A stretch of 64,000 bases of DNA from an uncultured bacterium (GCA_964619725.1 CAZUFC010000023.1:14487-78486), one strand, 5' to 3'; counted from the first letter of the stretch, positions 188 to 55,138 are shown. The notes: generated by a model from the letters alone, not told the origin. Numbers and translations are program-made.

Positions 188-583
188 TTAATTCCCATAA
201 TCGAATTCCCAGGTGTCGAGGTTGCTGGTCAGCGTGTTGAAATTCCTGTCCGTCATGGCCGTATACCATTTGAGACCGTAACCGGAACCCGTTCCGCCGG
301 GCCAGTTAAAGGCGGTAACCGGTATGATTCTTTTGATGTCCAAAGGATCAGCGTCTACTGAATAATAATCCATGGCGCCGGTGAAAGAAGGTCCCATGTA
401 GTAATTGCCGTAAGCTTCCAGGATCAGGAACAGGGGATAATTCGAAGGAGCGTCGGCATGAGCGTACCAGATGTCCAGCCAACAAGTATCTCCAGGCGTA
501 TAATATGTATCCGGCATGATCATTTTCACTCTGCCGGGATTCGCCGATTCGATCCAAACCTCTACATTAAAGCCCCGCGACAT
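188..583 (-). CDS. Stand-alone or orphaned copy of the FxYG-type C-terminal domain
   Basis: Aligns motif-by-motif with the C-termini of the 5380..8130 and 23590..25668 proteins (YYTPGD, LEAYGNY, FNWP, GLKW, FDYGN-stop). No signal peptide and no obvious RBS. Confidence 0.7.
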   Translation of the reverse strand: MSRGFNVEVWIESANPGRVKMIMPDTYYTPGDTCWLDIWYAHADAPSNYPLFLILEAYGNYYMGPSFTGAMDYYSVDADPLDIKRIIPVTAFNWPGGTGSGYGLKWYTAMTDRNFNTLTSNLDTWEFDYGN

Positions 584-601
584 GCTGCTTTTAGTTCCAG
601 C

Positions 602-802
602 TTATCCCGGAATATCGTCGATCCACAACAAATGAGCTTCAAGACTTGATTCTTGTATACCGTCGAGAAATTTCCGATCGGCAGTAACCATCCTGGCATT
701 TAAACTTCTTGCGAAGGCCAGATACAGACAATCATAAATGCTTTTTTGAAGTTGAATCGATAAACGGTATGCCTGTTCCACGAACAAATTTAAATCAGAT
801 TT
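602..802 (-). pseudogene. Truncated PIN-domain (VapC-like) toxin remnant
   Basis: AYRLSIQLQKSIYDCLYLAFARSLNARMVTADRKF matches the C-terminal half of a PIN domain (YD..YLALA...LVTAD). An in-frame TAA lies just upstream, so the N-terminal half is missing, and no antitoxin gene is present. Confidence 0.7.
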
Positions 803-1145
803 TTAAGACATACTTTCTCTTTTTGCCTTTTTTCAACTTTTCCGCAATTGTATCGTCAAGATAGCGAACGAGATTTTGAGTCAAAAATATCACTCACAGT
901 GACAAAAGCTAGCAATATGAGAGAAAAATTTATGCATCCTGGTCAAGCGGAATAACCTCGGACAATATAATTCCGGCGATTATTCCCAAAAACCAAATCC
1001 CATTCGGCCTTGTGCCGCATTAACTTAAGTTTGACTTTTATCAATAGTATCCGTTGAAGATTTTCTCCGTTATTTTGATGAATGAAGTAAGAGTGGAAGT
1101 TCGAGATGCTGTGACGTTTTTTTTCTCACGATCACTTCAAAATTT

Positions 1146-1367
1146 TTATGTATGATCTTCCTTCTTGCTGGATTCTGTTTTTCGCGGCCGGCTTTCTCCT
1201 GTTCCACCCTTTGGTGGACTTATGGAAACAGAGATTTGTTTTGGTTGGAAACCTCTTCTTTCAGAAGGCTGATATCCGTCTTTAACAGGTTGATAACCTT
1301 TAATACCCTCTATTGATGTTATTTGTATTTTTTTTGTTCGATGATTGTTAGTTTTCTTTGGACTCAT
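1146..1367 (-). CDS. Small basic peptide with three G[YF]QP repeats and a PPKGG motif
   Basis: GGAGG RBS upstream. Overlaps the upstream gene's 3' end by 20 nt. Contains GYQP-GYQP-GFQP repeats. Confidence 0.65.
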   Translation of the reverse strand: MSPKKTNNHRTKKIQITSIEGIKGYQPVKDGYQPSERRGFQPKQISVSISPPKGGTGESRPRKTESSKKEDHT

Positions 1368-1971
1368 CTAATTCCTCCATTTTAAGAATTTCGAAAAATT
1401 CCAGGTAGTCAAAAAAATCCTTATCTATCCACATTCCTTTAGTGTTTTCAATTTTTTCGAGAAATTCACCTTTTTCATTTACCCGCCAAACCTCTTCGAG
1501 ATAAATTTCTTCCTTAAAGGGTAATGAAGAGGCAAAAGAATTAGTACCGTAAAGACCTCCAATCAGTCTATTGTTCTTCAAATGAACAATCACATAACAA
1601 GGAAGGCCAGTCCCAAAGAAGTAATCCCAGGATTTCGGCGTAGGGTGAATCACTAATCCACGCAACAGGTGACTTCTAAGAAGGAGGAGGATAATTATTG
1701 GCCAAACTACAGGAAGGACAAATAAGAACAGGAAAACGAAAAATTTGAAAAGAGTTGGATGCGCTGTTTGAAATTCTGGTTTTACGGCGGTTAACATAAT
1801 TAAAATTGTGAAGTTAATACAGCTGTAACTTACGGCTTCCAAAAGATAATTAGAAAGTTTCCGGGTTTCTGACGGTACGAGTAGAGACCAGATTTTCATT
1901 GAAATAAAACCCGGAATTACAAACAAAAAGAACAAATTTATTTTTTCTGTAGCCAAAATTTCCATGAACAT
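1348..1971 (-). CDS. DUF6338-like membrane protein
   Basis: N-terminal F.IPGF.S helix and three TM segments, then HPTPKSWDYFF, IGG.YG..SFAS and IYLEEVW motifs. Confidence 0.75.
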   Translation of the reverse strand: MFMEILATEKINLFFLFVIPGFISMKIWSLLVPSETRKLSNYLLEAVSYSCINFTILIMLTAVKPEFQTAHPTLFKFFVFLFLFVLPVVWPIIILLLLRSHLLRGLVIHPTPKSWDYFFGTGLPCYVIVHLKNNRLIGGLYGTNSFASSLPFKEEIYLEEVWRVNEKGEFLEKIENTKGMWIDKDFFDYLEFFEILKMEELDESKEN

Positions 1972-2414
1972 TCCTTCTAACTCACATTGGTTTTAACATT
2001 TGTCCTAAAGTGCAATGAATATCATTATTCCTTGTCATATCGCCAATCTGCAAATCATCCGAATTTCCTTGAATATTCAACCAATCGAGTCTGCAATGCC
2101 TTCCTTATCCTATTAATCATTGATAACCGCAAAAGATGCGATCATCACCTTTAATAATTTTATTCATTTTACAACGATAAGACAAATATTTGTGGTAGAA
2201 ATGAAATTCGATGCCGCTCTGCTTTCGAGCGGAATTCGCCTAGGATTAAATTATGGTGAGAGATTCGTATGGTTATGTTATCCCTAATGAGACTTTTATA
2301 CGAATCCGAATAGTTTTAAGCAAGGTCAACATTATAATTGAATTGTTCTTGAGCGCCTGCCGATAAATTAAAATCCATATTCAAATTTGAGCGCTGGACT
2401 GAAAATCGTCAGAT

Positions 2415-3983
2415 TCACGCCTGCAAATCCGGCATTCTGAAGCGGTTCCTGTCAATTTCGTATTTTCTCATTTTGGAACGGAGGGTATTGGGGTTAATTC
2501 GAAGCAGTCTTGCGGCGCCGTAGGGTCCTTCTATCAGTCCTCTGGTGGCTTTCAGGGCGCATTCTATGTGGTTGATTATTGCCTGGTCCAGCGTGGGGAA
2601 AGGGGTTGCCGGCAGTTTTTCTGTTTTTTGAGGTTCTTCTTTTGTTTTTTGTTCGGGGGTTGCAGCATGAAACCCGCCCAGGGCTTTTTCTATTTCCAGC
2701 CTTTCGCCGTTTCCCAAGATGGCGGCGCGGTCGATCACTGCCGCCAGTTCTCTTATGTTTCCCGGCCAGGAATAATTCATCAGCAGGTCGATATCGTCCA
2801 GGGTCGGGACCAGCGGCGGAAGGCCGAAACGCCGGGAGGCCCGTTCCGCGAAATGGGTGACCAGCGCCGGCATGTCCTGCGGCCGGTTTCTCAAAGGCGG
2901 CAGATGGATCGGAAAAACCGCTATCCTGTACCATAAGTCGGCCCGGAATTTTCCCTCGGAAACCATCCTGCCCAGGTCCCTGTGAGTCGCCGCCGTAATG
3001 CGGACGTCGACCGTCAACTGTCGCTGACCGCCCACACGCTCGAACGTACCGTCCTGAAGTATCCTCAATAACCTCACCTGCGCAGCCTGCGGCAGCTCAC
3101 CGATCTCATCCAGAAATAAAGTTCCTTGATCCGCCCGCTCAAACCAGCCCTGATGCATGCTGACCGCTCCCGTAAAACTGCCCCGCTCATGACCGAAAAG
3201 CTCCGAATCGACCAGCTCCGGCGGGATCGCCCCGCAGTTCACCCTTAAAAACGGACCCTCTGAACGAGTCGACCGCGTGTGAATTGCCCGGGCTATTACC
3301 TCCTTGCCCGAACCCGTCTCGCCGAATATCAGCACCGGCACCGACGACCGGCTCACCATCTTTACGCGCTCCATCACCGGCTCCAATCCCCCCTCTGCAC
3401 CCACTATCGCCTCGCTGATCTTTTTCCTTCCCAGCTTCGTCAACAACGAACGACGATCCGCTTCCGCCGAATCACGCCGAATTTTCAATTCCCTGAATTT
3501 CGCATCATTCTCCGCTGCTGCCGATAACGGCTCGATCAACCGTCCCACCGCTTCCGCATGCGATTCGTCAAAATTCATCCCCTCTTCAGACTCAAAAATC
3601 AACAGAACAGGATATATCCTCTCTGTCGACGCTGATGCGATAAATAATTCCCCCCGCGTTTTTCCCGAACTCCACAGGGTGTTTTCCGCTTCCGACGACT
3701 CCCCGTCGACGAGCTTGAGTCCCTCCCGGCGATGCCATTCCATCAGTTTCTCCAGTTCGCACGTCTTCAATTGTTCTACAGACCTTTCCAGTGTTCCTCC
3801 GGCAGAGGTCCGCACCGTTTCCGCATATGAACGCTCCAGGTCTATGCGCCGCAACAGGACCGACTTTACCGGCAGCAGTTGCCGGATCAGGGGCATAACG
3901 GCCGGAAGCGTTTCGCTGATGGCGGTAAAGCGCGATGTTTTTTCCCATATACGTATCAGGATGGACTCGACATTGTTTTTCAT
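2415..3983 (-). CDS. Sigma-54-dependent enhancer-binding protein (FhlA/HyfR-like; GAF-like N-terminus, AAA+, Fis HTH)
   Basis: Walker A GETGSGKE, ELFGHERGSFTGA loop, Walker B LFLDEIGE, WPGNIREL, and C-terminal GAARLLRINPNTLRSKM HTH. Confidence 0.95.
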   Translation of the reverse strand: MKNNVESILIRIWEKTSRFTAISETLPAVMPLIRQLLPVKSVLLRRIDLERSYAETVRTSAGGTLERSVEQLKTCELEKLMEWHRREGLKLVDGESSEAENTLWSSGKTRGELFIASASTERIYPVLLIFESEEGMNFDESHAEAVGRLIEPLSAAAENDAKFRELKIRRDSAEADRRSLLTKLGRKKISEAIVGAEGGLEPVMERVKMVSRSSVPVLIFGETGSGKEVIARAIHTRSTRSEGPFLRVNCGAIPPELVDSELFGHERGSFTGAVSMHQGWFERADQGTLFLDEIGELPQAAQVRLLRILQDGTFERVGGQRQLTVDVRITAATHRDLGRMVSEGKFRADLWYRIAVFPIHLPPLRNRPQDMPALVTHFAERASRRFGLPPLVPTLDDIDLLMNYSWPGNIRELAAVIDRAAILGNGERLEIEKALGGFHAATPEQKTKEEPQKTEKLPATPFPTLDQAIINHIECALKATRGLIEGPYGAARLLRINPNTLRSKMRKYEIDRNRFRMPDLQA

Positions 3984-4008
3984 CCGTTTTCTCCTTATGA
4001 AAGGTTTT

Positions 4009-4024
4009 CCGTTAAATATAACGG
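4009..4024. promoter_or_regulatory. Palindrome CCGTTA-N4-TAACGG, candidate activator binding site (UAS)
   Basis: Perfect 6-bp inverted repeat ~100 bp upstream of the sigma-54 promoter, between the divergent genes. Confidence 0.4.
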
Positions 4025-4118
4025 TCAGCCTTAAAATAAAAAATACATGGAAAATTCCAAAAGTGCAACTCGATAATTAAGTTATTAAATATAAACATTT
4101 TTTGAGTATGCATTACTG

Positions 4119-4134
4119 CCGGCACGAAAAATGC
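4119..4134 (+). promoter_or_regulatory. Sigma-54 -24/-12 promoter for the TauE gene
   Basis: CCGGCACGAAAAATGC gives GG(4121-22)-N10-GC(4133-34), and it lies divergent from a sigma-54 activator gene. Confidence 0.7.
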
Positions 4135-4177
4135 CCTTTAACCCATGATGATTTTTTTTGTCAAAGGAGGAATCATA

Positions 4178-5101
4178 ATGTCGGATCAGAAAGGAAATGT
4201 AATGTGTACGAGGACGAACCGCGAGAAGCTTCAAATGCGTCGATTAAAGATTTGGGGCATATCGTTGCTGTCGATAGTAGTGATATTGGGATGGCAGATC
4301 GTATTTCCCGAGCATGGTATAATTCCAGAGCTGGTGGGATCGATGAATTCGGGGAAGATATTGGGTATATTTATGCTGGCTTTGTTGTGCGAGTATATTG
4401 ATTCAAGTTTGGGAATGGGATACGGGACGACGTTGACGCCATTGTTGCTTCTGGCCGGATTCGAGCCGCTGCAGATAGTTCCGGCGATATTGCTGAGCGA
4501 GTGCATAACGGGAATAACGGCGGGTTTGATGCATCACCATGACGGGAATGTAGATTTTTTACGTGACCGGAAAGCGCAGCAGACGGCGTTGCTTCTGGGC
4601 GCGTTGAGCGCTGTGGGTTCGATAACGGCAGTAACGCTGGCGATAAGGATATCGGGATTCTGGTTGAAGGCGATCATCGGGACGATCATATTATCGGTGG
4701 GAATACTAATACTGGCGACTTTACGGAAACGATTGTCGTATAAGCGAGGTCATATCATCGGATTAGGGGCGCTGGCGGCTTTCAACAAGGGAATAAGCGG
4801 CGGCGGGTACGGGCCTTTGGTAACGGGCGGCCAGATCGTTTCAGGGTTATCGCCGAAGAACGCCATAGCGATCACCTCAATAGCGGAAGGGGTAACCTGT
4901 TTCATCGGGTTAATTGCGTATTTAATAACGACGGGCGCTCCCGACTGGGCGTTAGCTGTGCCTTTGACGACCGGCGCGCTTATGTCCGTGCCGATGGCTA
5001 CGTTGACGGTCAGGAAGTTTCCCGAAAAAGCCATACGATGCAGCATAGGGGCGCTGACCTGCCTTTTGGGGATATTGACATTCGTTAAGTTGTTTGTTTG
5101 A
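4178..5101 (+). CDS. Sulfite exporter TauE/SafE family membrane protein
   Basis: IDSSLGMGYGTTLTP and its internal repeat KGISGGGYGPLVTG, with multiple TM helices. Start moved to ATG 4178, which follows AGGAGG. Confidence 0.9.
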   Translation: MSDQKGNVMCTRTNREKLQMRRLKIWGISLLSIVVILGWQIVFPEHGIIPELVGSMNSGKILGIFMLALLCEYIDSSLGMGYGTTLTPLLLLAGFEPLQIVPAILLSECITGITAGLMHHHDGNVDFLRDRKAQQTALLLGALSAVGSITAVTLAIRISGFWLKAIIGTIILSVGILILATLRKRLSYKRGHIIGLGALAAFNKGISGGGYGPLVTGGQIVSGLSPKNAIAITSIAEGVTCFIGLIAYLITTGAPDWALAVPLTTGALMSVPMATLTVRKFPEKAIRCSIGALTCLLGILTFVKLFV

Positions 5102-5129
5102 GGGAAAAAATTTGAAGGGTTAAAGAAAT

Positions 5130-5209
5130 AAAAGGACAAAAGGACGAAAAGGACTAAAAGGACCAAAAGGACTAAAGGGACCAAAAGGAATCAAGGGAGA
5201 TGAGGGACT
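5130..5209 (+). repeat. Tandem array of ~9 degenerate 9-bp units (AAAAGGACN)
   Basis: aaaaggac aaaaggacg aaaaggact aaaaggacc aaaaggact aaagggacc aaaaggaat caagggaga tgagggact. Confidence 0.85.
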
Positions 5210-5252
5210 TTCGGGGTACAATTCTGGTTGATGTATCGCCGGGGAAAGAGCC

Positions 5253-5340
5253 GGCCCGGCGGCGACAAGGGAAGTCCGCCGGGCCTGCTTTATCTGATGA
5301 GTTGATTGAGTAAGGATTGCGCCTGTTATGGAACAGGCGC
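5253..5340. terminator. Two hairpins between convergent genes
   Basis: GGCCCGGCGG/CCGCCGGGCC stem and GCGCCTGTT-ATGG-AACAGGCGC stem. Confidence 0.5.
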
Positions 5341-5379
5341 TTCCTCACAGTTTGATCGCGTTATTGCGTTTTTTTTGAA

Positions 5380-8130
5380 TCAATACCCATAAGCGAACTC
5401 GCGGCTGCAGAGGTCGCAGATGAAATCGAAGGTACCGGGATAGAAGACGGCAGCGTGGAAGTACAGGCCGTCGGCTTCGCCGGAATTTTGCGGCCATACG
5501 AACTGCAGAATGGGAGTGAGGTGTTCTCCTTCGTGGAATGTCCAGTCGGGCATAAAGTCCAGGTCTTGCGTCCAGGAGGGAAAGAAGAAATAAAGGCCGT
5601 ATACGTCCAGCAGGATATAGAGGTCAGCGGGGATAGCTGATGTGCTGTTGAATGAGATGAGGTAGAGGGAGAAGAATTCTCCTGGTCTGTAGTATGTTTG
5701 GGAAGTGTGGACAGTAATGTACCTGTCAGGTTCGGGAGTGGCAGTGGGTTGGACGGTGGGAGTGGGAGTGGCGACGGGGAACCTGTGGAAACCCATATCG
5801 ACGATGCCTGCGTCTATCTGGTGATCCGTTCTGGTGGTCATGTTGTCCATGCCGAAGTTGACGGATTGTCCGCTGCCGGTGTTCCAGCAGGGACTGTTAT
5901 CATCCTGGCCTGCGGCGATCTGGCTGAGATAGTAGTTTCCGCTGGGGCCGCGAATGAACATCGGGTCATCGGAAAAGGAGCCTTCGCCCATTTGAGCGGT
6001 CCCGCCGACATCGCCGTCGGGATTGTTCCAGAAAGCGTTATATTCGATTTCAAGAGCTTCCGTGCCGTAGGCGAAAACGCCTTCTCCGGCAACGCAGTTC
6101 GTAATGATATTGTTGATTATTTCCGATTCGGGAGAGTCGAGACAGTATATGGCAGCGCCCGACTCGACAGCTTCATTTTCGTCGAATGTATTGTTGCAGA
6201 TATAAGGCCTGCTGTAGGTGGCTGAAATGCCTCCGCCGTTGTGGCCTGTGTTGGATATGATGAGATTGTTGGTTATCTCCGGTTCTGCACCGTTGCGACA
6301 GTATATTCCGCCGCCGTCCGTATCGGACGAATTGTTCATGATGGTGCAGTTGGTGATGACGGGAGAGGAATCGTCGCAAAGGATTCCCGCGCCGAAATTG
6401 CCTTCATTGTTGATTATTCTGCAATGACTAATTCTGGCTTGAGCGTCGTTTTTACAGGTGATTCCTCCGCCGAACCATATCGGATCGCCTTCTCCGTGCC
6501 CGTTTCTGATGGTGAAACCTTCAATCATAGTGGCGCTGGTTTCATAGAATCGCAGAGAAACGGTCGTATTGGAGCCGTTGCCGTCTATAATAGTGTTCAT
6601 TGGTCCTTCAATGCTCCTCAGGATAATGGCCTTGCCGAGAAAATTGATGTTTTCCACGTATGTTCCGGGAGAGACCAGGATGGTGTCCCGGCTTTTTGAG
6701 GCATTAATGGCTTCCTGAATGGTTTCGAAATCCTGAGGGACTCGCCAGATATGGGGCGTCGGAGTCATTGTGACGGTGAAAGTGCCCGTAGGCGTGGGAG
6801 TCAGAGTTGCGGTAGGGGTGGAGGACGGCGTTCGAGTCGGCGTCCGTGTCGGCGTAAATGTGGGGACATTTCCCGGAATGTAATGCATGCCCATATCCAC
6901 CGTTCCCGTATCTTGAATCTGGTCCAGCCGGCAAGTCCAATCGCTCAAGCAAAGCGATTCGCCCGTGAACAGAAAACAAACAGCGGTCGCGAAATCATGA
7001 CCGGCATTGATGCAGGGGCTGGTTTCGGATTGTCCCGCTTCCTGATGCGACAGATAAAGCCGTCCGCCGCTGAAAACATACAGCGGATTCAGGGATATGT
7101 CGTTGGCTCCCGGAGTCGCTGACCCGCCGTAATTACCGTCATGGTTCTGCCAGAGGTTATTGTAATCCGCATCAGGACTGCAGTTTGCCGTTACATATAT
7201 TCCTTCGCCGTCGGTCGAATTGGTTATAATGTTGCTCTTTATCGTCGGCGATGAGTTGTCCATGCAGTAAAAAGCCCCGCCGAAAAGCGAAGCCCAGTTC
7301 ATGTTGAACGTGTTATTGATAAATTCCGGCGAGGATTGCTGCATGAATACTGCTCCACCGTATCTTGCGTCATTGTCGGTAAAAAGGTTGGAAATGAAAA
7401 CAGGCGATGAATTGAGCATGCAATAAACAGCGCCGCCGTCGAATTCAGCGGAATTGTTGTTGAAAAGATTCTGAATGAAAGTGGGAGAAGAGTCTTCACA
7501 GAAAACTGCGCCGCCTTTTACTCCGTTGTTATACAAAAACTTGCAGTTTTCGATCACTGGTGAAGAACCGTCTTTGCATGTTATTGCTCCCCCCGCATAC
7601 TCCGGACCTCCGCTGCCGGCTCCCGCCTTCAGGGTGAATCCGCACAAAAATGCGTCAGAAGTTTCTCCAGAAACGAAGGATGCGACGCAACCATTATTCG
7701 TACCGTGTATCAAAGTCGAATCGCTCCCCGATTCGCTCTCCACCGTAATGCCCTTTCCCAGGTAATCGATGTGCTCGTAATACGTGCCCGGAGCGACTAA
7801 GACGATGTTGCCCGCTACCGCTATGTTGATGGCATCCTGGATGCTGGGCTGGTCCGCAGGCACCCGGATTATGTTGGAATGCCACGTCGGCGTCGGAGTC
7901 GGCGATGCCGTCGGAGTCCTCGTTGCCGTGGGAGTACGCGTGGGAGTTAATGTCGGAGTTTCCGTAGGCGCATATGTTGGAGACTGAAGCAGCGAGGCTT
8001 GATCGATGCGGCTTGTCGATGTAATTACATCGGGATGAACATATGCCGCATAGGCAGGAAAATTGAGCAGAGTCAAAAAAAACGACGATAGAAACAACAG
8101 CAATCCTTGATTTATCAGGAACTTCTTCAT
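5380..8130 (-). CDS. Secreted protein with two right-handed parallel beta-helix (pectin-lyase-like, GGA[IV]xC repeat) domains, Thr/Pro linkers and an FxYG-type C-terminal domain
   Basis: Signal peptide ending AYA. Duplicated RVP.D..[ST]IQ[DE]AI...LV.PGTY.E.I..LGK and YLS...AGQ...SPC...VDMG.H modules. TPTPT linkers. GAGGAGG RBS. Confidence 0.9.
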   Translation of the reverse strand: MKKFLINQGLLLFLSSFFLTLLNFPAYAAYVHPDVITSTSRIDQASLLQSPTYAPTETPTLTPTRTPTATRTPTASPTPTPTWHSNIIRVPADQPSIQDAINIAVAGNIVLVAPGTYYEHIDYLGKGITVESESGSDSTLIHGTNNGCVASFVSGETSDAFLCGFTLKAGAGSGGPEYAGGAITCKDGSSPVIENCKFLYNNGVKGGAVFCEDSSPTFIQNLFNNNSAEFDGGAVYCMLNSSPVFISNLFTDNDARYGGAVFMQQSSPEFINNTFNMNWASLFGGAFYCMDNSSPTIKSNIITNSTDGEGIYVTANCSPDADYNNLWQNHDGNYGGSATPGANDISLNPLYVFSGGRLYLSHQEAGQSETSPCINAGHDFATAVCFLFTGESLCLSDWTCRLDQIQDTGTVDMGMHYIPGNVPTFTPTRTPTRTPSSTPTATLTPTPTGTFTVTMTPTPHIWRVPQDFETIQEAINASKSRDTILVSPGTYVENINFLGKAIILRSIEGPMNTIIDGNGSNTTVSLRFYETSATMIEGFTIRNGHGEGDPIWFGGGITCKNDAQARISHCRIINNEGNFGAGILCDDSSPVITNCTIMNNSSDTDGGGIYCRNGAEPEITNNLIISNTGHNGGGISATYSRPYICNNTFDENEAVESGAAIYCLDSPESEIINNIITNCVAGEGVFAYGTEALEIEYNAFWNNPDGDVGGTAQMGEGSFSDDPMFIRGPSGNYYLSQIAAGQDDNSPCWNTGSGQSVNFGMDNMTTRTDHQIDAGIVDMGFHRFPVATPTPTVQPTATPEPDRYITVHTSQTYYRPGEFFSLYLISFNSTSAIPADLYILLDVYGLYFFFPSWTQDLDFMPDWTFHEGEHLTPILQFVWPQNSGEADGLYFHAAVFYPGTFDFICDLCSREFAYGY

Positions 8131-8183
8131 CTCAACCTCCTCGTTAGAGTTGAAGTTCTATTTTTAAATCCGCAAGAGGAGAG

Positions 8184-13900: not shown

Positions 13901-15783
13901 ACACGTATCTGTATTCTGGCGTAAGCGGCCCCGGCAGGCGCCTGAACGTCGCCGGTCGTCAGCATCTGCCAGGAATCCTGATCGACAGTATAAGAAGAAC
14001 CGGCGCCCTCAATGTAATCGTAATATTCATCTTCCCATCTGAGCCAGAACCTGGTCTTTCCCCGGTCATCGTTGTCGTAGAAATATCCTGTTAGATTATA
14101 CCACTGTCCTTCCAGAACAGGGCAGGCCGCAACCTGCTCCAACTCGCTCGTCGAAGTCGACGTCCAGTTGATGTGACAACTGTAGGAACCCTCATATACG
14201 ATGGTTCCCTCCTGCGTCGCGGTTATATCCTCATCGCTGAGATTCCAATAGTCCGGAGGTCCGCCGGCGCCATACTCCGTCCAGCTTTCGAATCCGCCGT
14301 TCTTCAGCAATTCCGTGCCCATCGCCGGAGGATAACAGAACCAGTATGGATCATCCTGGGCATCAGCCTCATCAGAAGACGTCTGATTGCCGTTGTAGAT
14401 GAATGTGTCTTCTACGCCGGTTTTCGTTACTTTAACGTAATATTCGATCGTATCGCCTTCACCGGCTCCGGCGCCGTCCGGATCGATTATCGTATACCAG
14501 TAATCATTGACATCCCTTTGCGAAGGATCATAGTTGCATTCCCATTGTCCCGCATTCTGCGTCCAGGTCATAGTTCCCTGAACGCGATAATACAACGTCA
14601 CGGTGTCCGCACCCATCGTCGGGTAAACGCCGACATGAACATATACGTCGTCCGTTTCGTCTACAGGCGCCAGAGGTACTCTCATAGGCGTATCAGCATT
14701 GCAAGCTTCCTTGGAAAGAGGAACATGCCAGCAATTGACAAGATTGCTGGGCGTCTGAATCGGCGTCGCCGTGTAGGTGGGCTCGGGCGTCGGCGTCTCC
14801 GGCGCACATACTTCATAGAATGAAACGGCATCCACGTATACGTCGGCGGGCGGAAAGCCGCTGCCGGAAACATCGTAGCAGCGGATTTGTATCAGCGCAT
14901 AAGCCGCATCGTTCGGCGCGACTACATCGCCGCTGGTCAGCATCTGCCAGTTGTCCTGGTCTTCGCTGTATTCGGATTCATTATTCTGAACGAATGAATA
15001 TGTTTCATCCTCCCATCGCACATATAACCTGACGCGCCCTCTCGGATCGTTGTCGTAAATATACGCTTTGCAATTGTAAGTATGGCCCGGAAATACCGCA
15101 CATTCCGTATACTGTTCCAACTGCCGCGTGCTCGTCGTCGTCCAGTTCAAATGACAACTGTGACTCCCTTCGTATATCACGTAATCCTCGCGTACAGCGG
15201 TTATGCCGCTTCCCGACAAACTCCATTCGTCCGGAGGTCCGCCGGGGTCCGTCCAGGTTTCAAAATCGCCGTTTCCTATCAGCTCCGTTTCGCAAACCGG
15301 AGAATAACAGAAATGATACGGGTCAGCCTGAGCGTCCGCCTCAACGTCGGATTTCGTGTTGCCGTTATAGATGAATGTGTCGGGCATGCCGTCTTTCGTT
15401 ACCTTAACGTAATATTGTACCGTATCGCCGGGGCCCGCTCCCGCTATACCGTCAGGATCGATCACTGTTCCCCAGTAATCATTGTTGCTGTAATTGCATT
15501 CGTGCGCGCCCGTGTCGGTGTTCCACGTCGATGCTTCCGATTCCTTGTAATACAAAGTAACCGCATCCGCTCCCGTGATCGGGTATACTCCGACGTGTAT
15601 CCAGACGTTCTGAGTATAATCGTTCGGCGCCAGAGGCACCCTCATATACGTGTAATCATTGCACGCCTCCGCCGAATCAGGTATGTGCCAGCATTCGATC
15701 AGTTGCGCTTCAGCCGGAACTGTGCTTAATAACAGCAAAAGCACAATCGCCGCCGACAGCTTCGACATTTTCCAATGATTCAT
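10996..15783 (-). CDS. 1595-aa secreted repeat protein: 5x (WHxP..EAC..MRxP module + CBM4/9-like NGxFE module) with an IPTL-CTERM-like tail
   Basis: Signal peptide ending AEA. Five alternating pairs of modules. Tail VPAAGTFG + hydrophobic helix + RRRRK. GAGGAGG RBS. Confidence 0.9.
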   Translation of the reverse strand: MNHWKMSKLSAAIVLLLLLSTVPAEAQLIECWHIPDSAEACNDYTYMRVPLAPNDYTQNVWIHVGVYPITGADAVTLYYKESEASTWNTDTGAHECNYSNNDYWGTVIDPDGIAGAGPGDTVQYYVKVTKDGMPDTFIYNGNTKSDVEADAQADPYHFCYSPVCETELIGNGDFETWTDPGGPPDEWSLSGSGITAVREDYVIYEGSHSCHLNWTTTSTRQLEQYTECAVFPGHTYNCKAYIYDNDPRGRVRLYVRWEDETYSFVQNNESEYSEDQDNWQMLTSGDVVAPNDAAYALIQIRCYDVSGSGFPPADVYVDAVSFYEVCAPETPTPEPTYTATPIQTPSNLVNCWHVPLSKEACNADTPMRVPLAPVDETDDVYVHVGVYPTMGADTVTLYYRVQGTMTWTQNAGQWECNYDPSQRDVNDYWYTIIDPDGAGAGEGDTIEYYVKVTKTGVEDTFIYNGNQTSSDEADAQDDPYWFCYPPAMGTELLKNGGFESWTEYGAGGPPDYWNLSDEDITATQEGTIVYEGSYSCHINWTSTSTSELEQVAACPVLEGQWYNLTGYFYDNDDRGKTRFWLRWEDEYYDYIEGAGSSYTVDQDSWQMLTTGDVQAPAGAAYARIQIRVYDETGTTFPPADVYADAISFQEAESIFSPTPVPTMAPTPTETAPINAWHYPKNKEACNDYTYMRDPVGPTNPAVDVYIHVGAYPQTTAIDSYILHYRKVDDAWQTATGEWGCNYNDNDYWYASMNPAAIGAAAGDVIEYYLEVAKDGTIMFIYEDSGWTLDEPTAQADPYSFCYAPECESELLENGDFETWTVPAGPPDGWTVSDDDLTAVMEDTEVHGGTYSCALNWTESGHYLEQMIACPVTPGEEYTLSGFVYDNDPTGSLRLNIRWEEGDNSYISNDFSEYTTDEAAWQELSIIDAEAPADAVWAVIRVRCYVSDKAEKGLLYLDDMTFTQKCPQGEINCWHIPYSMEACDDSTTMRNPFLPENPTAGVDIFAGVYPPAGDETMTLIYRVNEAPIWSSAAGAYQCTYSGNDYYKATGLTASAGDTVEYIIKMTKTGGDYEATYIYNDNELTLDHLVAKADPYTFRYPIECEQELLFNPSFESWTEHGATGPPDDWEVYGDVQAMQENGIVHGGLGSSCHLHWETEGGYKSIQQMVYIPVTQYVVYQLTGYAYDDDTDTDITMKMVWYDATGNFIYYDRTDYSSDQAAWQLLDTGQIVPPSNAVWLEIEIGCYEYGDPWDGAGDIYVDDLHLEELCIDPLINAWHIPDSAEACDDTTTMRFPFAPEDPAVDVWVHVGANPIGGAEAVTLYYRMPEDATWTTNSEGWECNYMNNDYWGTKIDADGIGADLGDTVEYYIKVENTGNTTTYIYADNTITQTEADAQSSPYSFSFPLGCDTQLILNGDMESWSSPTGPPDDWELYGSITAAQEDTIVHGGSYSAHLHWETTSTVRMEQYGIINVTPGIEYEFSAYAYDNDEDGDVRLTIRWEDGDHNYIQNSYSDYSEEIDDWQFLTTGRVEAPDGAVFAQAQFRCYDQGDFTAGDVYVDDALFVHPCPEQVPAAGTFGLFFALTTISALLYRRRRKL

Positions 15784-16005: not shown

Positions 16006-16024
16006 GTTGAGGAAATAAAAAAAA

Positions 16025-17586: not shown

Positions 17587-17751
17587 AATTTTCGGTTGAT
17601 TGACTTTGAATATTACTTTTGATAAAACGACTTCAGTTGGGTAATTCGGCACGATCAATCAATGTTCAGAGACCGAATGAAGGGGACTGTGGAGATTTAT
17701 TTGCAGGAAAAATTTTTATAAAGAGTTTTGATTTAACGGGAGCGGAGAGAT

Positions 17752-20700
17752 ATGAGAGAACGCATGCTTTTATCGTTTTTTGTTTTCATATTGGCGGGCA
17801 TCAACATCATTTTTTGCGTTTCGGGTGTGAGTGCGGACGTGCTGGACGCACTACCTCCTTACACGGAAGGTCATGATCCAGCGCCGGACGAGACGGACGT
17901 CCCGGTCGATGCTGCCGTAACGTTTTACATTTATGATGATGCAGACGGAGTAGATGCGGCATCGATCTATTTGACCGTTGAGGGAACGGCAGCGACGCCC
18001 CAGACGATAACTTCCGTTCCGGACGGATATTATTGCGAGTATCAGCCGGAATCGAGTTTTCCATACTCGACGGTGATTGACATAACCATTTACGGGTACG
18101 ATCTGGCCGATCCTCCGAACATAATGGACCCGTTCAGTTATGCTTTTACGACGGAGGCGGAGCCGCCGACGTCGACGCCGTTTCCGACATCGACGCCGAC
18201 ATTGACGCCTACTTCTACGCTCAGTCCGACGGGTACGATCCCCACGTTTACTCCCACATTAACGCCGACTGATACGGCGCTTCCGACGGAAACTCCCTAC
18301 TACAGCCCTGAACCAACACCTCCGCCGACCGCGACTGAAATTCCGACGGAAACGCCGATTCCTGATAACGAACCGCCCTATGTCGTATCCCGGATTCCGG
18401 AAGCGGGAGCAGTTGGAGTTGATATCAATACGACCATTTCAGCGACTCTTGCGGACGACGTATCCGGCATCGAGCCGAGCAGCGTTGAAATGACGGTGCA
18501 GGGGCAACCGGTAACCTTCACATTATCGGGAAACATTTACAATATGACTTTGACTCATACGCCGCCTGAACCTTTTGATTACCTTGAGGTCGTGGAGGTA
18601 ACGATAGGGGCGTATGATCTGGCTGATCCGCCGAACGAGATGCCGTTGGATACATATTCTTTCACATGTGAAGAGGAGCCGACGCCGACCGAAGGTCCTC
18701 CGACCGAAACGCCGACGGAAACTCCGACCTCCACGTCGACTTTGACGCCCACGATGAGTCCCACATCGAGTCCGAGCGCCACTTTGTCTCCGACTTTATC
18801 TCCGACGCTTTCGCCGACCCGGACGGGAACACCGACGCTCACTCCGACAGCGACGTTAAGTCCCACAGGCACTTTACCGACTCTGACGCCGACAAACAGT
18901 CCGACTTTGACGCCCATACCCAGCGATACGCCCACAAATTCGCCGACTGTTCCTCCTACTTCAACCCCTACTTTTACTGCCACAATGACGCCGGAACCCA
19001 CCGATACGATTATTCCGACCGAACCCCCGACTTTAACGCCTACCCTGGGCCCGACGGAAACTCCCGGACCTGATCTGGACCCTCCTTACACCAGCGATCA
19101 CGATCCTGCTCCGGGCGAGATTGACGTATGGCCGGACGATCCCATCATCGTTGCGGTTAACGATGACGGTGAAGGCGTCGATCTCAGCAGCGTCTTTATA
19201 ACGGTTAACGATGAGGAGGTTACGCCTGAAGTTTCAGGAGACGTCAGCAAATATACCTTTACTTACGATCCGACGACATATTTTCCTTACGGGACCGAAG
19301 TCGTCGTAACAGTGGATGCGTTTGATTTGGCTGAACCGCCGAACGTTATGGATACTGATATCTACAGTTTTACGATCATAAATTTGACTCCGACGGCCGT
19401 TCCTTCACCTGAACCGACTTTAACCCCTACCGTTTCGCCCACGGGAACAGTTCCTACGGAAATACCCACTGAAATTCCCAGTCCTACGCCAACTCCTGAT
19501 GTCGAACCGCCCTATACCACGGACCATGACCCTCTTCCCGGAGCGGAAAATGTCCCTGCGGATACCAACGTATCCGTAACGATCAACGATGACGGAGAGG
19601 GCGTCGATCTCAGCAGCGTCATTTTTCTGGTGGATGGAGTTCTGGTGACGTCGGAACCGTCAGGCGGGCCGCAGGCTTACACTTACACGTATGATCCTGA
19701 AATAGACTTTGCGCCTGGACAATCGGTCCTGATCACCGTAGATGCGTCTGACCTGGCCGATCCGCCCAACGATATGGAAACCGACGTATACAGCTTCACC
19801 ATCGCACAGGCTACTCCCACTTCATCGCCTACACTCTCGCCGACCGCTACCCTGTCGCCGACTGCTCCTCCGACTCTCTCCCCAACGCTCACGCCCACTC
19901 AGACCTTCACGCCCACTGCGCCGCCCACTCTTTCGCCCACTGCTACGCCTACATCGACTCTTTCCCCGACTTTCACTCCCACAAATACTCGCACTCCCAC
20001 CCTTTCTCCAACCTCTTCACCTACTCTTACCGCGACCTCAACGCCTACTCTTACGCATTCGCCCACCTTCACTCCGACGCTGACTCCGACTTTGACGCCC
20101 ACTGACGAACCCACCTTAACTCCCACTGTCGAACCGACAGTGACCGCTACTTTTATTATTCCCGATCCGCCCGTCATGATCGAAGAACCTGATTTTACTC
20201 AGGGCTTTTCCAATACGGTTTTCTGGACCGACAGCGAACTGGGCATCGCTTACCTGGCTGAATGCAGTCTGGACTCGGAATTTGCGGAAATAGTCGCCGA
20301 TTCAGGTTGGATCACGGCCAATCAATACGAGTTTACTGAGCTGCTGCACGGCGTTGAATACTTCTATCGAGTCAAAACGCAATCGCCGGAAGGAACGGAA
20401 AGCGGTTGGTCAAACGTCGTCTCCTCTGAACAGGATGCCGTTCCCCCGAAAATAATAGCCGCAGGATGGTGGAATTCGAAATACTCCTCCACGCAAGGCG
20501 GTACGATCGCTCTGATGGCTGTCTGCCTCGATGACGACCTGGAATACATAGAAATGTACTACGCCGGCTCTCCCCTCGGAGTCTATCTCAAAGATGACGG
20601 AACACAGGGTGATTTTGTGGCGGGAGATTATCTCTTCAGCTTCATCATAACCGGCGCTGATCCGGCAGGATTCCCAGGGCCGATTCAAATCGATTTATAC

Positions 20701-20760
20701 GCATTCGATCATGCCGGCAATTTCGGAAGCTGGCCGGCAGTCAGAATTACTGAAGATTAG
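17752..20760 (+). CDS. 1002-aa secreted protein with four Ig-like (SbsA/Big_5-like) repeats, long Thr/Pro/Ser linkers, an FN3-like domain and an LxDDG..GD..AGD C-terminal domain
   Basis: Signal peptide. Four PPY...P...DV...DD..G[VI]...DLA[DE]PPN.M...Y[SA]FT repeats. TL[ST]P tetrapeptide tracts. YFYRVK...G.ESGWS FN3 signature. Confidence 0.88.
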   Translation: MRERMLLSFFVFILAGINIIFCVSGVSADVLDALPPYTEGHDPAPDETDVPVDAAVTFYIYDDADGVDAASIYLTVEGTAATPQTITSVPDGYYCEYQPESSFPYSTVIDITIYGYDLADPPNIMDPFSYAFTTEAEPPTSTPFPTSTPTLTPTSTLSPTGTIPTFTPTLTPTDTALPTETPYYSPEPTPPPTATEIPTETPIPDNEPPYVVSRIPEAGAVGVDINTTISATLADDVSGIEPSSVEMTVQGQPVTFTLSGNIYNMTLTHTPPEPFDYLEVVEVTIGAYDLADPPNEMPLDTYSFTCEEEPTPTEGPPTETPTETPTSTSTLTPTMSPTSSPSATLSPTLSPTLSPTRTGTPTLTPTATLSPTGTLPTLTPTNSPTLTPIPSDTPTNSPTVPPTSTPTFTATMTPEPTDTIIPTEPPTLTPTLGPTETPGPDLDPPYTSDHDPAPGEIDVWPDDPIIVAVNDDGEGVDLSSVFITVNDEEVTPEVSGDVSKYTFTYDPTTYFPYGTEVVVTVDAFDLAEPPNVMDTDIYSFTIINLTPTAVPSPEPTLTPTVSPTGTVPTEIPTEIPSPTPTPDVEPPYTTDHDPLPGAENVPADTNVSVTINDDGEGVDLSSVIFLVDGVLVTSEPSGGPQAYTYTYDPEIDFAPGQSVLITVDASDLADPPNDMETDVYSFTIAQATPTSSPTLSPTATLSPTAPPTLSPTLTPTQTFTPTAPPTLSPTATPTSTLSPTFTPTNTRTPTLSPTSSPTLTATSTPTLTHSPTFTPTLTPTLTPTDEPTLTPTVEPTVTATFIIPDPPVMIEEPDFTQGFSNTVFWTDSELGIAYLAECSLDSEFAEIVADSGWITANQYEFTELLHGVEYFYRVKTQSPEGTESGWSNVVSSEQDAVPPKIIAAGWWNSKYSSTQGGTIALMAVCLDDDLEYIEMYYAGSPLGVYLKDDGTQGDFVAGDYLFSFIITGADPAGFPGPIQIDLYAFDHAGNFGSWPAVRITED

Positions 20761-20927
20761 TAAAGAATGAAAGACGGGCGACCAGGAATTACTGTGAGGC
20801 ACGGCTGTAAGATGTGAATGAAATACAAAGGCTCGCGCAGTCCCGATAATTCCTTAAATACCCGTACGCCGATTTCCTGATAACCCGCCCGGGAACATCA
20901 TTTTTTCAGCGGTTTGCGAAGGGCTCC

Positions 20928-20960
20928 GACCCCTCTGCTGACCCCTCTGCTGGACCCCTT
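20928..20960 (+). repeat. Short direct repeat GACCCCTCTGCT x2 plus a partial third copy
   Basis: gacccctctgct gacccctctgct ggacccctt. Confidence 0.6.
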
Positions 20961-21076
20961 TTTTTCTTCTGTTTACTCTTGCGGAAGATTCTGGACAAAA
21001 GGCGAAAAAAGTTTTTTAATAGGGAAAGAAAAGGATTCGTATCGATCAATGCATTTTGTGCGAAAGGTTTCAAATT

Positions 21077-22174: not shown

Positions 22175-22195
22175 ATGGTTTGAAAGGAGTATAAA

Positions 22196-23044: not shown

Positions 23045-23143
23045 AGACTTGTTCAGGCTTTGACGACTAATAGGAGGAGATAATCAACGCTCGAATCCTT
23101 GAATGCAGGATTAAAACCGGGAGTTGAAAGAAACGAGGTTGGT

Positions 23144-23506
23144 ATGGTCGACTGGAAATTTGAAAGTATAAGGAACTGGCCTGACATAATGGATTTTGTC
23201 CGCAAAATCTTTGTTTTGTGCCGGGGATTGCCCCTTGATGAGTCAAACGGACTGACGCGACAGATGAAAAATGCGGCAATGAACGTCCCCGTCAACATAG
23301 CAGCCGGAAGGGCCTACAAGGATAAAAAGGAGTTCAGCAAATTTCTGATTGAAGCTCGTATGCATCTTTATAAGACTGTTGTTTGTCTGAAACTTGCTTC
23401 TGACCTGGAATACATTCCAGGCAAGGAATCTGCGACGCTGCAGGAGGATGCCGAACAAATCCTTAAATTACTCAACGGCATGATTCGTTATCTGGAAAAA
23501 AGCTGA
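23144..23506 (+). CDS. Four-helix bundle protein (23S rRNA IVP-like family), divergent
   Basis: LP.DE..GLT.QMKNAAMNVPVNIAAG...KEF.KFL..AR...DLEYI pattern. GAGG RBS before ATG 23144. Confidence 0.85.
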   Translation: MVDWKFESIRNWPDIMDFVRKIFVLCRGLPLDESNGLTRQMKNAAMNVPVNIAAGRAYKDKKEFSKFLIEARMHLYKTVVCLKLASDLEYIPGKESATLQEDAEQILKLLNGMIRYLEKS

Positions 23507-23589
23507 GGAATTTTCTCAAAGGTCGTTATCCTGAACAAAGGAATCTCCGGCAGTAGGAATAAAAGCGGCGTCCGGTAAGGAGACAGAGA

Positions 23590-25668
23590 GTGGTTGAACG
23601 GCATTTATTGATCAACAAGCTATACGGTATGGTCCTACTTTTAGGTTGTCTGACGTCATGCCCTGCGGTTATGGCTGATGCGACCTTCGAGAGCAGTCTG
23701 ATCAAGATAAAGCCTGGCCAGACATATTCAGGGCAGTCTGAATTAAATCTGAAAGGTGCGCGCAATGAGTATTTATCCTTCCAAATCGTTTTGAACGGGC
23801 CCATGCAGGGGATTACGGTCAGTTGCGGTCCTTTGGCGGGAGATTCAGGTTCCATCGGCAATGAAAATATACTGTGCTGCGGCGTGTCGTACATGAATAT
23901 TACAACGCCGTCGAATTTTGAAGGGGGTATCGGAACCTGGCCGGATGGACTGATACCTTCGGTCGATCCTTACTTTTCCGAACAGCGGAACAGTTTCCCG
24001 ATTAATGTACCTGAAGAGGAGAACCGGCTGGTATGGATCGATCTTTTCATACCTCCTGACGCAAGCGCCGGAGATTATGCCGGAGAGATAGTCGTCGAAA
24101 GCGGCGGCCAGGAGATTCAGTCTTTGAGCTACACTGTTCATGTCTGGAATTTCACTCTCCCCTCAACGTCATCCCTTCCGACCGCTTTCGGTTTCGACGG
24201 CTGGGAGGTTTTACGGGGGCACTTTGGAGAGGAACAGATGCATGAACATTATGATGAAATTGTGCCCTTGACCAGGAGATATCTCGACAGCGCTTTAAGG
24301 CACCGGATCACGCTTTCATCTTTTCTGAAGGAAGACTGGGACATGTATGACGAGCCGGTGGATTGGACGGCTTTCGACGAGCGTTGGCGAGATTATCTGG
24401 ACGGATACGACACGGTTTTCGGACTCCAGAATGCCGCATTGACAAGCGTGGAATTGACGGATTGCGATGGAACGGACCAGGAGCGGATCAATTACTGGCA
24501 AGCCTTTGCACAGCATTTCAGACAGCAGGGCCGTCTCGGCGTTTTATTCGATTATACTTTTGACGAACCTTACGATGCAGAGGATTATGCGGCGATAGCA
24601 GACCGAACCGCGCTCATCCGGCAGGCTGATCCGGAACTGCGGACGCTCGTCACCACGGACATTCAGGAGGCTTCTCAATACGATGCACAGGACGATATCG
24701 ACGTGTGGGTTCCGCTGATAAATTTCATTTACGGTAAGCCGTATGATGTTTGCTGGGACGAGGAATACGAGGGATATCAGCGGGATGAATATGACACGTT
24801 GCTTCAGAACGGCGATGAGTTATGGTGGTACCAGTCATGTATGAGTCACGGATGTGCGGGAAGCGATCCGGATGATCAGTGCGAAGCGGGTTATCCCTCG
24901 TATATGATCGACCATTCGGCTGTGCGCAACAGGATCATGAGCTGGATGACTTATTTCTACGATATTCACGGCGAATTGTATTTTGCCGTGAATTATGCGG
25001 ACGAAGCCGGCGATGCCTGGGTCGATCAGTTCTATTTCGGAGGCAACGGCGACGGAACGTTGTTCTATCCGGGACGCCCATCACAGATAGGCGGAACTTC
25101 CCATATCCCTGTCGAATCCATCCGGCTTAAACATATCCGGGACGGATTGGAGGATTATGAGTATTTCCTCCTGCTGGAACAGGTCCAGGGCAGGGCTGCG
25201 GTCGTGGAACGACTGCAGCCGATAATTACGAACGCTTATACATATTCGGAAAACCCCGAACTCATGGCATCGATCATAGACGAGATCGGCGAGGCGCTGG
25301 ATACCTCAATGCCTTATGTCGGAGTCCGTTTGTCTATGCCGGATGACTATTTTTCACCCGGAGAGGAGTGCGGATTAAACGCTGTTATCTTTAACGATTC
25401 TGAACCCTTGCTGAACACGCCGCTCTTCTGCCTGCTAGACATTTACGGCCAATACTGGTTCTGGGACGACTGGACTCATGAATTGGATTATCACCTTCTG
25501 AACGTTCCTACAGGAGATACTTCCCTGACAATCATCGACCTTTTTACCTGGCCGGATACGGGACAGGATTCGCTCCAGGGTCTGGCATTTCTGGCCGCCC
25601 TGGTCGACACAAGCTTGACGAGCATCATCGGTGATTACGACATCCTTCTTTTCGGATACGGTCCGTAA
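23590..25668 (+). CDS. Secreted DUF4091/GH123-like glycoside hydrolase with an FxYG-type C-terminal domain
   Basis: ARNEYLSFQ, WPDGLIP, DYTFDEP, WWYQSCMSHGC, GNGDGTLFYPG and SIRLKHIRDGLEDYEY motifs. The last ~115 aa are the shared C-terminal domain. Confidence 0.85.
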   Translation: MVERHLLINKLYGMVLLLGCLTSCPAVMADATFESSLIKIKPGQTYSGQSELNLKGARNEYLSFQIVLNGPMQGITVSCGPLAGDSGSIGNENILCCGVSYMNITTPSNFEGGIGTWPDGLIPSVDPYFSEQRNSFPINVPEEENRLVWIDLFIPPDASAGDYAGEIVVESGGQEIQSLSYTVHVWNFTLPSTSSLPTAFGFDGWEVLRGHFGEEQMHEHYDEIVPLTRRYLDSALRHRITLSSFLKEDWDMYDEPVDWTAFDERWRDYLDGYDTVFGLQNAALTSVELTDCDGTDQERINYWQAFAQHFRQQGRLGVLFDYTFDEPYDAEDYAAIADRTALIRQADPELRTLVTTDIQEASQYDAQDDIDVWVPLINFIYGKPYDVCWDEEYEGYQRDEYDTLLQNGDELWWYQSCMSHGCAGSDPDDQCEAGYPSYMIDHSAVRNRIMSWMTYFYDIHGELYFAVNYADEAGDAWVDQFYFGGNGDGTLFYPGRPSQIGGTSHIPVESIRLKHIRDGLEDYEYFLLLEQVQGRAAVVERLQPIITNAYTYSENPELMASIIDEIGEALDTSMPYVGVRLSMPDDYFSPGEECGLNAVIFNDSEPLLNTPLFCLLDIYGQYWFWDDWTHELDYHLLNVPTGDTSLTIIDLFTWPDTGQDSLQGLAFLAALVDTSLTSIIGDYDILLFGYGP

Positions 25669-55135: not shown

Positions 55136-55138
55136 CAT

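Follow-up and report, generated by a model that had tools for sequence, protein, structure and literature searches.

C-terminal sorting domains define whole pathways of secretion and surface display, among them the type IX secretion system (T9SS), sortases, exosortases and cellulosomes. The usual C-terminal domain (CTD) of T9SS cargo comprises about 70–90 amino acids (aa) in 7 strands. Dockerins are Ca-binding, helical, duplicated EF-hand-like modules that occur on 70 to >200 diverse secreted proteins per genome, dock non-covalently and are occasionally found at other positions. Here we investigated a C-terminal beta-sandwich domain of about 115 aa (hereafter the sandwich domain), three copies of which lie in a 64,000-nt stretch of DNA from an uncultured bacterium (GCA_964619725.1 CAZUFC010000023.1:14487-78486; this whole stretch is called the window). 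We propose that the sandwich domain is probably an address tag for either anchoring or export, and that it probably marks the surface proteome of a rare uncultured phylum. The host phylum is most likely candidate division CSSED10-310, which has been described as rare, uncultured and predicted to be Gram-negative in a publication that does not mention the domain (PMC8248873).

A preliminary description of the window, made from its sequence alone, had reported three open reading frames (ORFs) with collinear, homologous tails, and this was borne out by alignment over about 115 residues, in which the motifs it had pointed out are present, and by pairwise BLASTP. A 131-aa ORF matched a beta-helix protein (E = 1e-08, 26% identity over 114 aa) and a GH123 protein (E = 1e-15, 31% identity over 114 aa), and the latter two matched each other (E = 7e-09, 34% identity over 116 aa). 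Outside the tails, BLASTP detected no other significant similarity between the three window proteins. The description had also stated that the two full-length carriers possess N-terminal signal peptides and unrelated passengers; hydrophobic, signal-peptide-like N-termini are indeed present by eye, and the Pfam matches confirm the difference in passengers. The beta-helix carrier gene (5380..8130, minus strand, 916 aa) has a signal-peptide-like start, and its sandwich domain occupies 5380..5730 (aa ~801–916; BLASTP and hidden Markov model, HMM). The remainder (5731..8130) encodes the N-terminus, Pro/Thr-rich (PT-rich) linkers and two right-handed beta-helix/NosD-like modules (Beta_helix E = 2.6e-27, NosD 2.8e-12, Chlam_PMP 1e-07). 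The GH123-like carrier gene (23590..25668, plus strand, 692 aa) bears the domain at 25318..25668 (aa ~577–692; BLASTP and HMM), preceded at 23590..25317 by a hydrophobic N-terminus with a possible lipobox (LLLGC, by eye) and the GH123-like passenger (GH123_cat E = 8.5e-11, Glyco_hydro_123_N_2 1.3e-06). Immediately upstream of this gene lies a 135-aa ORF for a ‘23S rRNA-intervening sequence protein’ (PF05635; 23099..23506, plus strand).

The third ORF (188..583, minus strand, 131 aa) consists almost entirely of the sandwich domain (~191..550, stop codon at 188..190, HMM E = 7e-60). It starts 12 aa ahead of the domain and has neither a signal peptide nor a passenger. Its stop-to-stop frame of 137 aa abuts the stop codon of a truncated PIN-domain gene located directly upstream (605..802, minus strand, 66-aa frame), which matches only positions 77–115 of the 120 profile positions, the C-terminal third of the PIN domain. 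This ORF, entered in the preliminary description without strand and as a domain-bearing ORF, probably represents the surviving 3' end of an earlier carrier gene and not a full carrier; the truncated PIN gene beside the orphan domain suggests that the passenger was lost through deletion or rearrangement. The remaining matches of <250 aa in the genome are likewise fragments, frameshifted pieces or located at contig ends.

The assembly (9.17 Mb in 344 contigs, 47% G+C, estimated to be 90.9% complete and 6.5% contaminated) was searched as 53,820 stop-to-stop ORFs of ≥60 aa. Sequencing runs were searched as well, and only DNA runs, all from one study, were listed, with no RNA run among them. An HMM built from the three tails matched 217 ORFs. 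Because a three-sequence model recovered that many further ORFs in the same genome, we judge the sequence similarity of the three tails to be far beyond chance. A profile built from 41 sequences (alignment A2, whose first row is the copy of the GH123 carrier) matched 225 ORFs, none of which contained two copies, so that the family comprises about 225 copies in this genome and not merely three. The distance between the end of the domain and the stop codon was 0–5 residues in 199 of these ORFs, 6–15 in 14, 16–40 in seven and >40 in five. The earlier statement that the domain is always located at the extreme C-terminus thus holds for most copies, but not for a few N-terminal or internal ones. An independent six-frame search of the genome yielded 150 scored matches among 269 candidates. 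When the C-terminal 130 aa of every crude gene model were clustered without any prior model, the sandwich domain again emerged as the largest C-terminal family of the genome (203 members, 198 of them HMM-positive). It is present on about 3% of all genes. The description had further given a length of ~110 aa and an FxYGx-stop ending. While the domain itself was recovered, it is longer (~115 aa) and the ending is only loosely conserved: across 201 aligned genome copies, the F position is occupied by F in 77% and by W in 20%, with E, P, R, Y, D or N at the final position.

The domain is preceded by a linker of distinctive composition. The 35 residues ahead of it have a median Pro+Thr+Ser fraction of 0.51, compared to 0.215 across the same proteins, and the fraction was at least 0.5 in 102 of 202 cases. 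Signal peptides were called with a crude heuristic that allowed three alternative starts, and 158 of 199 carriers were positive, as opposed to 1343 of the 3646 remaining genes of ≥250 aa. We take this enrichment to be real, while the absolute numbers are soft. Among 1.84 billion cluster representatives, the profile found 2,506 at E ≤ 1e-3, 2,177 at ≤1e-10 and 640 at ≤1e-30, and the domain ended within five residues of the C-terminus in 143 of the best 150. The signal-peptide heuristic flagged 82 of the 145 representatives with a called gene, a set that includes many fragments from metagenomes.

Pfam was run on 72 of the 150 best cluster representatives and identified passenger families in 41 of them, with no Pfam family in the other 31. 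These families represent about 17 classes of the sort expected on extracellular or surface proteins. Beta-helix/PMP/NosD passengers were the most frequent (16 representatives), followed by subtilases (S8; four), Kelch (three) and FG-GAP, LTD, BNR_4 and Qn_am_d_aIII (two each). Clostripain (C11), astacin (M12), VWA, metallophosphatase, PETase-like hydrolase, sortilin/BNR, PQQ propeller, YNCE/lactonase propeller, InhA-MAM and FGE-sulfatase were each found once. Many carriers of this genome additionally contain gingipain-like C25 peptidase domains. The public names of 52 carriers found by profile search refer to the passenger only or read ‘hypothetical protein’. Cytoplasmic carriers would have spoken against a sorting role; the carriers appear to be exported and are very diverse.

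A second C-terminal module was found in the same genome. The second-largest C-terminal cluster (158 members, none with a sandwich domain) is characterized by a tail composed of a PT-rich linker, a P[IV]P[AS] motif, a hydrophobic helix and a basic cluster (for example ...EQVPAAGTFGLFFALTTISALLYRRRRKL). By regular expression, this P[IV]P[AS]-transmembrane (TM)-basic tail is present on 143 of 5,117 genes of ≥150 aa, with zero overlap with the sandwich domain, and the signal-peptide heuristic was positive in 109 of the 143. One of these genes lies in the window (10996..15783, minus strand) and encodes a CBM_4_9 protein of 1,595 aa. No NCBIfam CTERM model scored above threshold for the one P[IV]P[AS] tail tested. 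One exosortase/archaeosortase-family gene (G000:C134:13003-13455) adjoins a tagged gene; it scores 65.7 bits against TIGR04178 (cut-off 23) and resembles archaeosortase B and XrtH most closely. For 34 of 189 sandwich-bearing passengers, we identified a paralog that ends in the P[IV]P[AS]-TM-basic tail (≥60% coverage of both passengers, E ≤ 1e-20, identity up to 55–61%). Since two different C-terminal modules sit on otherwise homologous proteins, the sandwich domain and the P[IV]P[AS] tail look like interchangeable address or anchor modules.

The five genome copies followed by >40 residues include examples of the domain away from the C-terminus. A 910-aa protein consists of a signal peptide, the domain, TIG and a C-terminal FGE-sulfatase. 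Further proteins of this genome have the orders FGE-sulfatase, domain, FGE-sulfatase, or signal peptide, domain, 5'-nucleotidase-like passenger (the latter by eye), and one has a 132-aa tail behind the domain. Arrangements of these kinds also occur in metagenomic representatives and in distant lineages. The sandwich domain therefore seems, as far as sequence can tell, to be an autonomous module that is still useful without a free C-terminus. As these rare N-terminal and internal copies indicate that a free C-terminus is not strictly required, docking is slightly favored over a terminal signal. We also noted that an FGE-sulfatase (SUMF1-like) is located at the C-terminus in three of nine non-terminal or multi-copy cases examined; the sites at which it takes this place are G000:C153 (L086) 3826..6558 (minus strand), G000:C179:522-2942, representative P0046 and the distant locus L080 (G371).

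Searches against Pfam and NCBIfam at E ≤ 1 gave no meaningful match for the domain region in the three window proteins or in the 41 members, so no characterized family was recovered; the best chance-level matches (Pfam E = 0.081, NCBIfam E = 0.0051) each concerned one member and an unrelated family. The profile matched no solved structure among Protein Data Bank (PDB) sequences (best E = 0.11), and the ESM Atlas returned unnamed clusters only, with scores ≤0.90 and recognition below the mark of the tool. Across 201 genome copies, P97 is conserved in 99%, L58 in 96%, N44 in 93%, F94 in 92%, W96 and W70 in 89%, P68 and F108 in 85% and D34 in 81%. Aromatic and proline residues in loops (W70, F94, W96, P97 and P68) are thus prominent among the most conserved positions, as are N44 and L58. 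The consensus reads GV.L.lP...F.PGD.F.L...i.N...(9)...LDVyG.YwFwPsWt...D...G...F.WP....G..F..A......G..D..eFGyg. The beta-sandwich suggested by the preliminary description is supported by a confident AlphaFold2 model of the GH123-carrier copy with the 41-row alignment (predicted local distance difference test 92.5, predicted TM-score 0.82), which shows eight strands and no helix in an immunoglobulin-like (Ig-like) arrangement. If the strands follow a simple up-and-down topology, the loops with the aromatic residues (behind strands 4 and 6) would share one pole with the linker entry and the C-terminus.

Foldseek against the PDB gave weak matches only (RhoGDI, E = 7.7e-5, TM-score 0.40–0.46; CARDB 3idu, E = 2.3e-4, TM-score 0.49). 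An exhaustive VIA structure search, in which models without a true match typically reach Z 7–8, was led by the N-terminal Ig-like domains of GH66 enzymes (Z 9.8 and 9.3) and by CARDB 3idu (Z 8.7, root-mean-square deviation 4.0 over 103 residues), followed by GH2 Ig-like and macroglobulin domains; a porphyran-binding carbohydrate-binding module (CBM; 8wae) showed a weak fold resemblance (Z 7.5). Because the Foldseek matches are weak and the VIA scores lie near those typical of unmatched models, we assign the predicted fold to the generic E-set Ig-like class, with a CARDB-type resemblance only, and consider the family to be new at the sequence level.

A generic fold of this kind, with its similarity to GH66 and GH2 Ig-like, CARDB, macroglobulin and porphyran-binding CBM domains (Z 7.5–9.8, TM-score 0.4–0.5), would also suit a conventional accessory domain of the Ig or CBM type. 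Such a domain would bind a polymeric substrate, or act as a spacer or stabilizer, and would simply have expanded in this lineage without any sorting role. The conserved aromatic loop YG-x-YWFWP-x-W fits this explanation, as aromatic loops of this kind are seen in glycan-binding sites, and so does the fact that the domain also works at non-terminal positions. Accessory Ig and CBM domains are commonly found in tandem and at varied positions, though, whereas none of the 225 ORFs carries two copies and about 95% of the copies are terminal. A single substrate is hard to fit to passengers as different as peptidases, VWA, Kelch, phosphatases and adhesin-like beta-helices, and an accessory role accounts poorly both for the large share of genes that carry the domain and for its exchange between close paralogs with a membrane-anchor-type sorting tail. 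We therefore regard a purely accessory role as unlikely.

To determine the distribution of the sandwich domain, we searched further genomes. The three-row profile was positive in 10 of 13 other genomes of the phylum, with 56 to >111 scored matches each, and negative in three genomes of the same phylum (families f2, f3 and f5) and in each of the 27 genomes from other phyla. When 401 genomes were searched with the 41-row profile, this set of 11 genomes (including the present one) was positive again, and the three negative members of the phylum stayed negative. Weak relatives (E = 1e-7 to 1e-10, several per genome) were detected in four of 387 genomes from other phyla, three of which belong to one family (G053, G221 and G371) and one to another (G057). 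In seven loci from these four genomes (L078-L084; E = 1e-7 to 1e-12 against the profile), the relative is C-terminal in most ORFs; it directly follows the end of a C25-type peptidase in two loci and is located right behind the signal peptide in two ORFs. The lineage specificity that had been proposed therefore holds for the domain proper, with one phylum and 10 of its 13 other genomes positive, and is qualified by diverged relatives in the four genomes outside it. No description of the domain was found in the portions of the literature covered on CSSED10-310 and on C-terminal sorting domains or secretion in candidate phyla.

We then searched for cognate machinery. A search for T9SS type A tails (TIGR04183) gave no match in 12 of the phylum's 14 genomes, this genome among them; the other two had 10 (the fragmented G013) and one (G012). 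PorV (NF033710) had no match in this genome, which is 90.9% complete, and the control genome of B. thetaiotaomicron gave only a sub-threshold match. SprA (TIGR04189) was found in none of the 14 genomes and neither SprA_N (PF14349) nor GldM and GldL were matched, although the control genomes were equally without match. A classical sortase is missing from the genome, and for this search the controls did match. Six Omp85 matches were obtained, and the cell is therefore considered to be diderm. Two paralogous PorU-like C25 proteins of ~1,090 aa (G000:C69:23976-27275 and G000:C70:1674-4955; L062 and L063) reach 230 bits against NF033707, below the cut-off of 420 bits, and also match NF052324 (PorU2-like). 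Within the phylum, eight of the 14 genomes encode PorU-like proteins of ≥200 bits. Two of these eight (G001 and G002) are among the three domain-negative genomes, and no protein at that level was found in five of the 11 domain-positive ones (G005, G006, G009, G010 and G012). Because this distribution does not follow the sandwich domain, the PorU-like C25 peptidase was set aside as the cognate processing enzyme. Separately, both PorU-like proteins share a third C-terminal region, of the form ...DDG...D..AGDG.F..., with the product of a window gene (17752..20760, plus strand); against the NCBIfam ‘choice-of-anchor X’ model it gave E values of 0.0043 and 0.00058, below the cut-off.

These findings bear on the possibility that the sandwich domain is a true secretion signal, which would be read in the periplasm by a dedicated, T9SS-like outer-membrane translocon and possibly be cleaved, with the passenger released or covalently attached. 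Such a signal would be expected to be terminal, as the domain strictly is in 88–95% of copies and in nearly all of the best representatives, and to occur once per protein, as it does here. The cargo repertoire, including many gingipain-like C25 peptidases, resembles that of the T9SS. Distant lineages place the domain directly after a C25 peptidase, the position of the T9SS CTD in Bacteroidota. The PorU-like pair and the diderm cell, in which large passengers need an outer-membrane route, would fit as well. The scarcity of T9SS type A tails, the lack of a PorV match and the distribution of the PorU-like proteins all argue in the other direction, and N-terminal or internal copies would be useless as a C-terminal signal. 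Taken together, a true secretion signal appears possible but rather doubtful. The same caution applies to a more far-reaching idea, in which an undescribed pathway of outer-membrane export and attachment, with its own translocon and processing enzyme, uses the domain to tag its cargo. Such a pathway could move and display ~3% of the proteome, doing the job that the T9SS has in Bacteroidota, in CSSED10-310 and, having diverged, in two or more other uncultured lineages; we mention it as a speculative option.

Genes surrounding the carriers were inspected as well. The most enriched neighbor is a 39-member set of collagen-like, tail-fiber-type paralogs, for which the enrichment is mild (13 of 39). 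Members of this collagen-like family are exported, ~780–820 aa long and contain G-P-x repeats (e.g., G000:C153:229-2574 and G000:C24:38633-40972), and their C-terminus resembles, by eye, the intramolecular chaperone domain of tail fibers and endosialidases. Another recurrent neighbor resembles a TonB-dependent receptor, also by eye. A linkage to secretins was rejected, as none of the seven secretin genes of the genome lies nearer to carriers than expected by chance. One of the seven is part of a type IV pilus pilM-pilN-pilO-pilP-secretin (pilQ-like) operon in the window (54068..58671, plus strand).

The version of the address tag that we tentatively put forward is a modular, lineage-specific domain for targeting and anchoring at the cell surface. 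Reading from sequence, we infer the export of the carriers, their docking and the nature of the partner as follows. The carriers would be exported by Sec via their N-terminal signal peptides, and a flexible Pro/Thr-rich linker would lie between the passenger and an Ig-like sandwich of eight strands that folds on its own. The sandwich would dock the passenger to a common component of the envelope, which may be an outer-membrane protein, lipopolysaccharide or exopolysaccharide, or a scaffold protein, so that hundreds of different enzymes and adhesins would be displayed or retained at the cell surface. In function, this would correspond to the role that dockerins, SLH domains or, once attached, T9SS CTDs have in other organisms, and within the same genome the sandwich domain would be the alternative to the exosortase-type P[IV]P[AS]-TM-basic tail.

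Several observations weigh against anchoring through a common partner. No partner was found, and the neighbor enrichment in this genome and at 29 loci elsewhere produced no candidate. The nearest carriers are 3 to 47 kb away from the secretins, compared to a mean carrier spacing of ~41 kb. A true secretion signal would explain equally well why the domain is so strongly biased toward the C-terminus and why each protein has only one copy. The structural matches are generic (best Z 9.8) and carry no functional clue, the gene models are stop-to-stop ORFs from a metagenome-assembled genome of the completeness and contamination given above, and export of the carriers relies on a crude heuristic that also flags 37% of the other genes. 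Alternatively, the sandwich domains could bind each other, homo- or heterotypically, and knit the carriers into a proteinaceous surface coat. The large number of carriers, if they are co-expressed, and the edge strands of a beta-sandwich would be compatible with this, but we consider such a coat very improbable. The preliminary description had interpreted the domain as a lineage-specific tag for outer-membrane export or surface attachment. This interpretation came through the checks of copy number, position, carrier export and family membership, while the function it assigns is still a proposal and no cognate machinery was found.

Sorting and anchoring domains at the C-terminus are known as a kind. 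The libraries and the portions of the literature searched contain no description, however, of this family, of its expansion across the phylum, with neither T9SS tails nor PorV detected in the present genome, or of the exosortase-type tail with which it is paired. With 2,506 clusters and >200 genes per genome at most, it is a large family that is recognized neither by Pfam and NCBIfam nor by public annotation. A family model would allow a better annotation of these genomes at once, and phylogenetic profiling, interaction screens and proteomics could build on it to find the partner, which may turn out to be a novel receptor of the envelope or a novel route of secretion. Paralogs with either tail represent a natural experiment on how bacteria choose their mode of surface attachment.

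Among known systems, CARDB (PF07705) shares the E-set fold class (Z 8.7, TM-score ~0.5), a similarity that is generic to the class, and, by eye, a conserved Asn-Gly strand followed by a strand of the ‘v-D-l-Y-v-l-D’ type. CARDB domains are usually internal or repeated and are not known to act in sorting; none of the 41 members of the sandwich family matches PF07705 at E ≤ 1. PPC domains (PF04151) are likewise small beta-sandwiches at the C-terminus of secreted peptidases. They are thought to aid secretion and to be removed thereafter, and occur mostly on peptidases and chitinases, often in tandem. The sandwich domain differs in that it has no Pfam match, that its passengers are far more diverse and that it is never duplicated. 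No CBM family was matched by Pfam at E ≤ 1 in the 41 members; given the weak fold resemblance to 8wae, glycan binding is nevertheless conceivable.

The preliminary description had also distinguished the domain from autotransporter barrels, PEP-CTERM-type tags, dockerins and the T9SS CTD, and our comparison agrees in each case. An autotransporter barrel has 12 or more strands, while the model obtained here is a 115-aa, eight-strand sandwich, and Pfam detected no such match. Exosortase and archaeosortase tags (PEP-CTERM, VPXXXP-CTERM) are similar in being C-terminal addresses on many surface proteins that are preceded by a PT-rich linker. Such tags are short (~25–35 aa), with a transmembrane helix between a motif and a basic cluster, and an intramembrane sortase processes them, whereas the sandwich domain is a soluble, folded module of 115 aa; its alignment contains no hydrophobic helix, and none of the 143 genes with a P[IV]P[AS]-TM-basic tail bears it. 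Dockerins (PF00404) resemble it as small single modules that are nearly always C-terminal and follow a Pro/Thr-rich linker on diverse secreted proteins. The sandwich domain is, in contrast, predicted to be all-beta without helices and has no Pfam match to dockerins, and no cohesin-like repeated receptor was identified, although one representative carrier (P0063) contains a Cohesin domain.

With regard to the T9SS CTD (type A, TIGR04183/PF18962; type B, TIGR04131), membership was rejected, as no HMM matched the three window proteins, the 41 members or, for TIGR04183, the whole genome. Comparison of A2 with two genuine T9SS tails from relatives by hhalign gave a probability of 0.15%, with a template alignment of two rows only. 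The sandwich domain is also longer than the T9SS CTD (~115 aa, eight strands) and has rare N-terminal and internal copies. In other respects the two are alike: both form one Ig-like beta-sandwich that terminates many unrelated enzymes and adhesins, which are exported by Sec or, in the case of the sandwich domain, appear to be, with dozens to hundreds of carriers per genome and a cargo of C25 and S8 peptidases, glycosidases and beta-helix adhesins.

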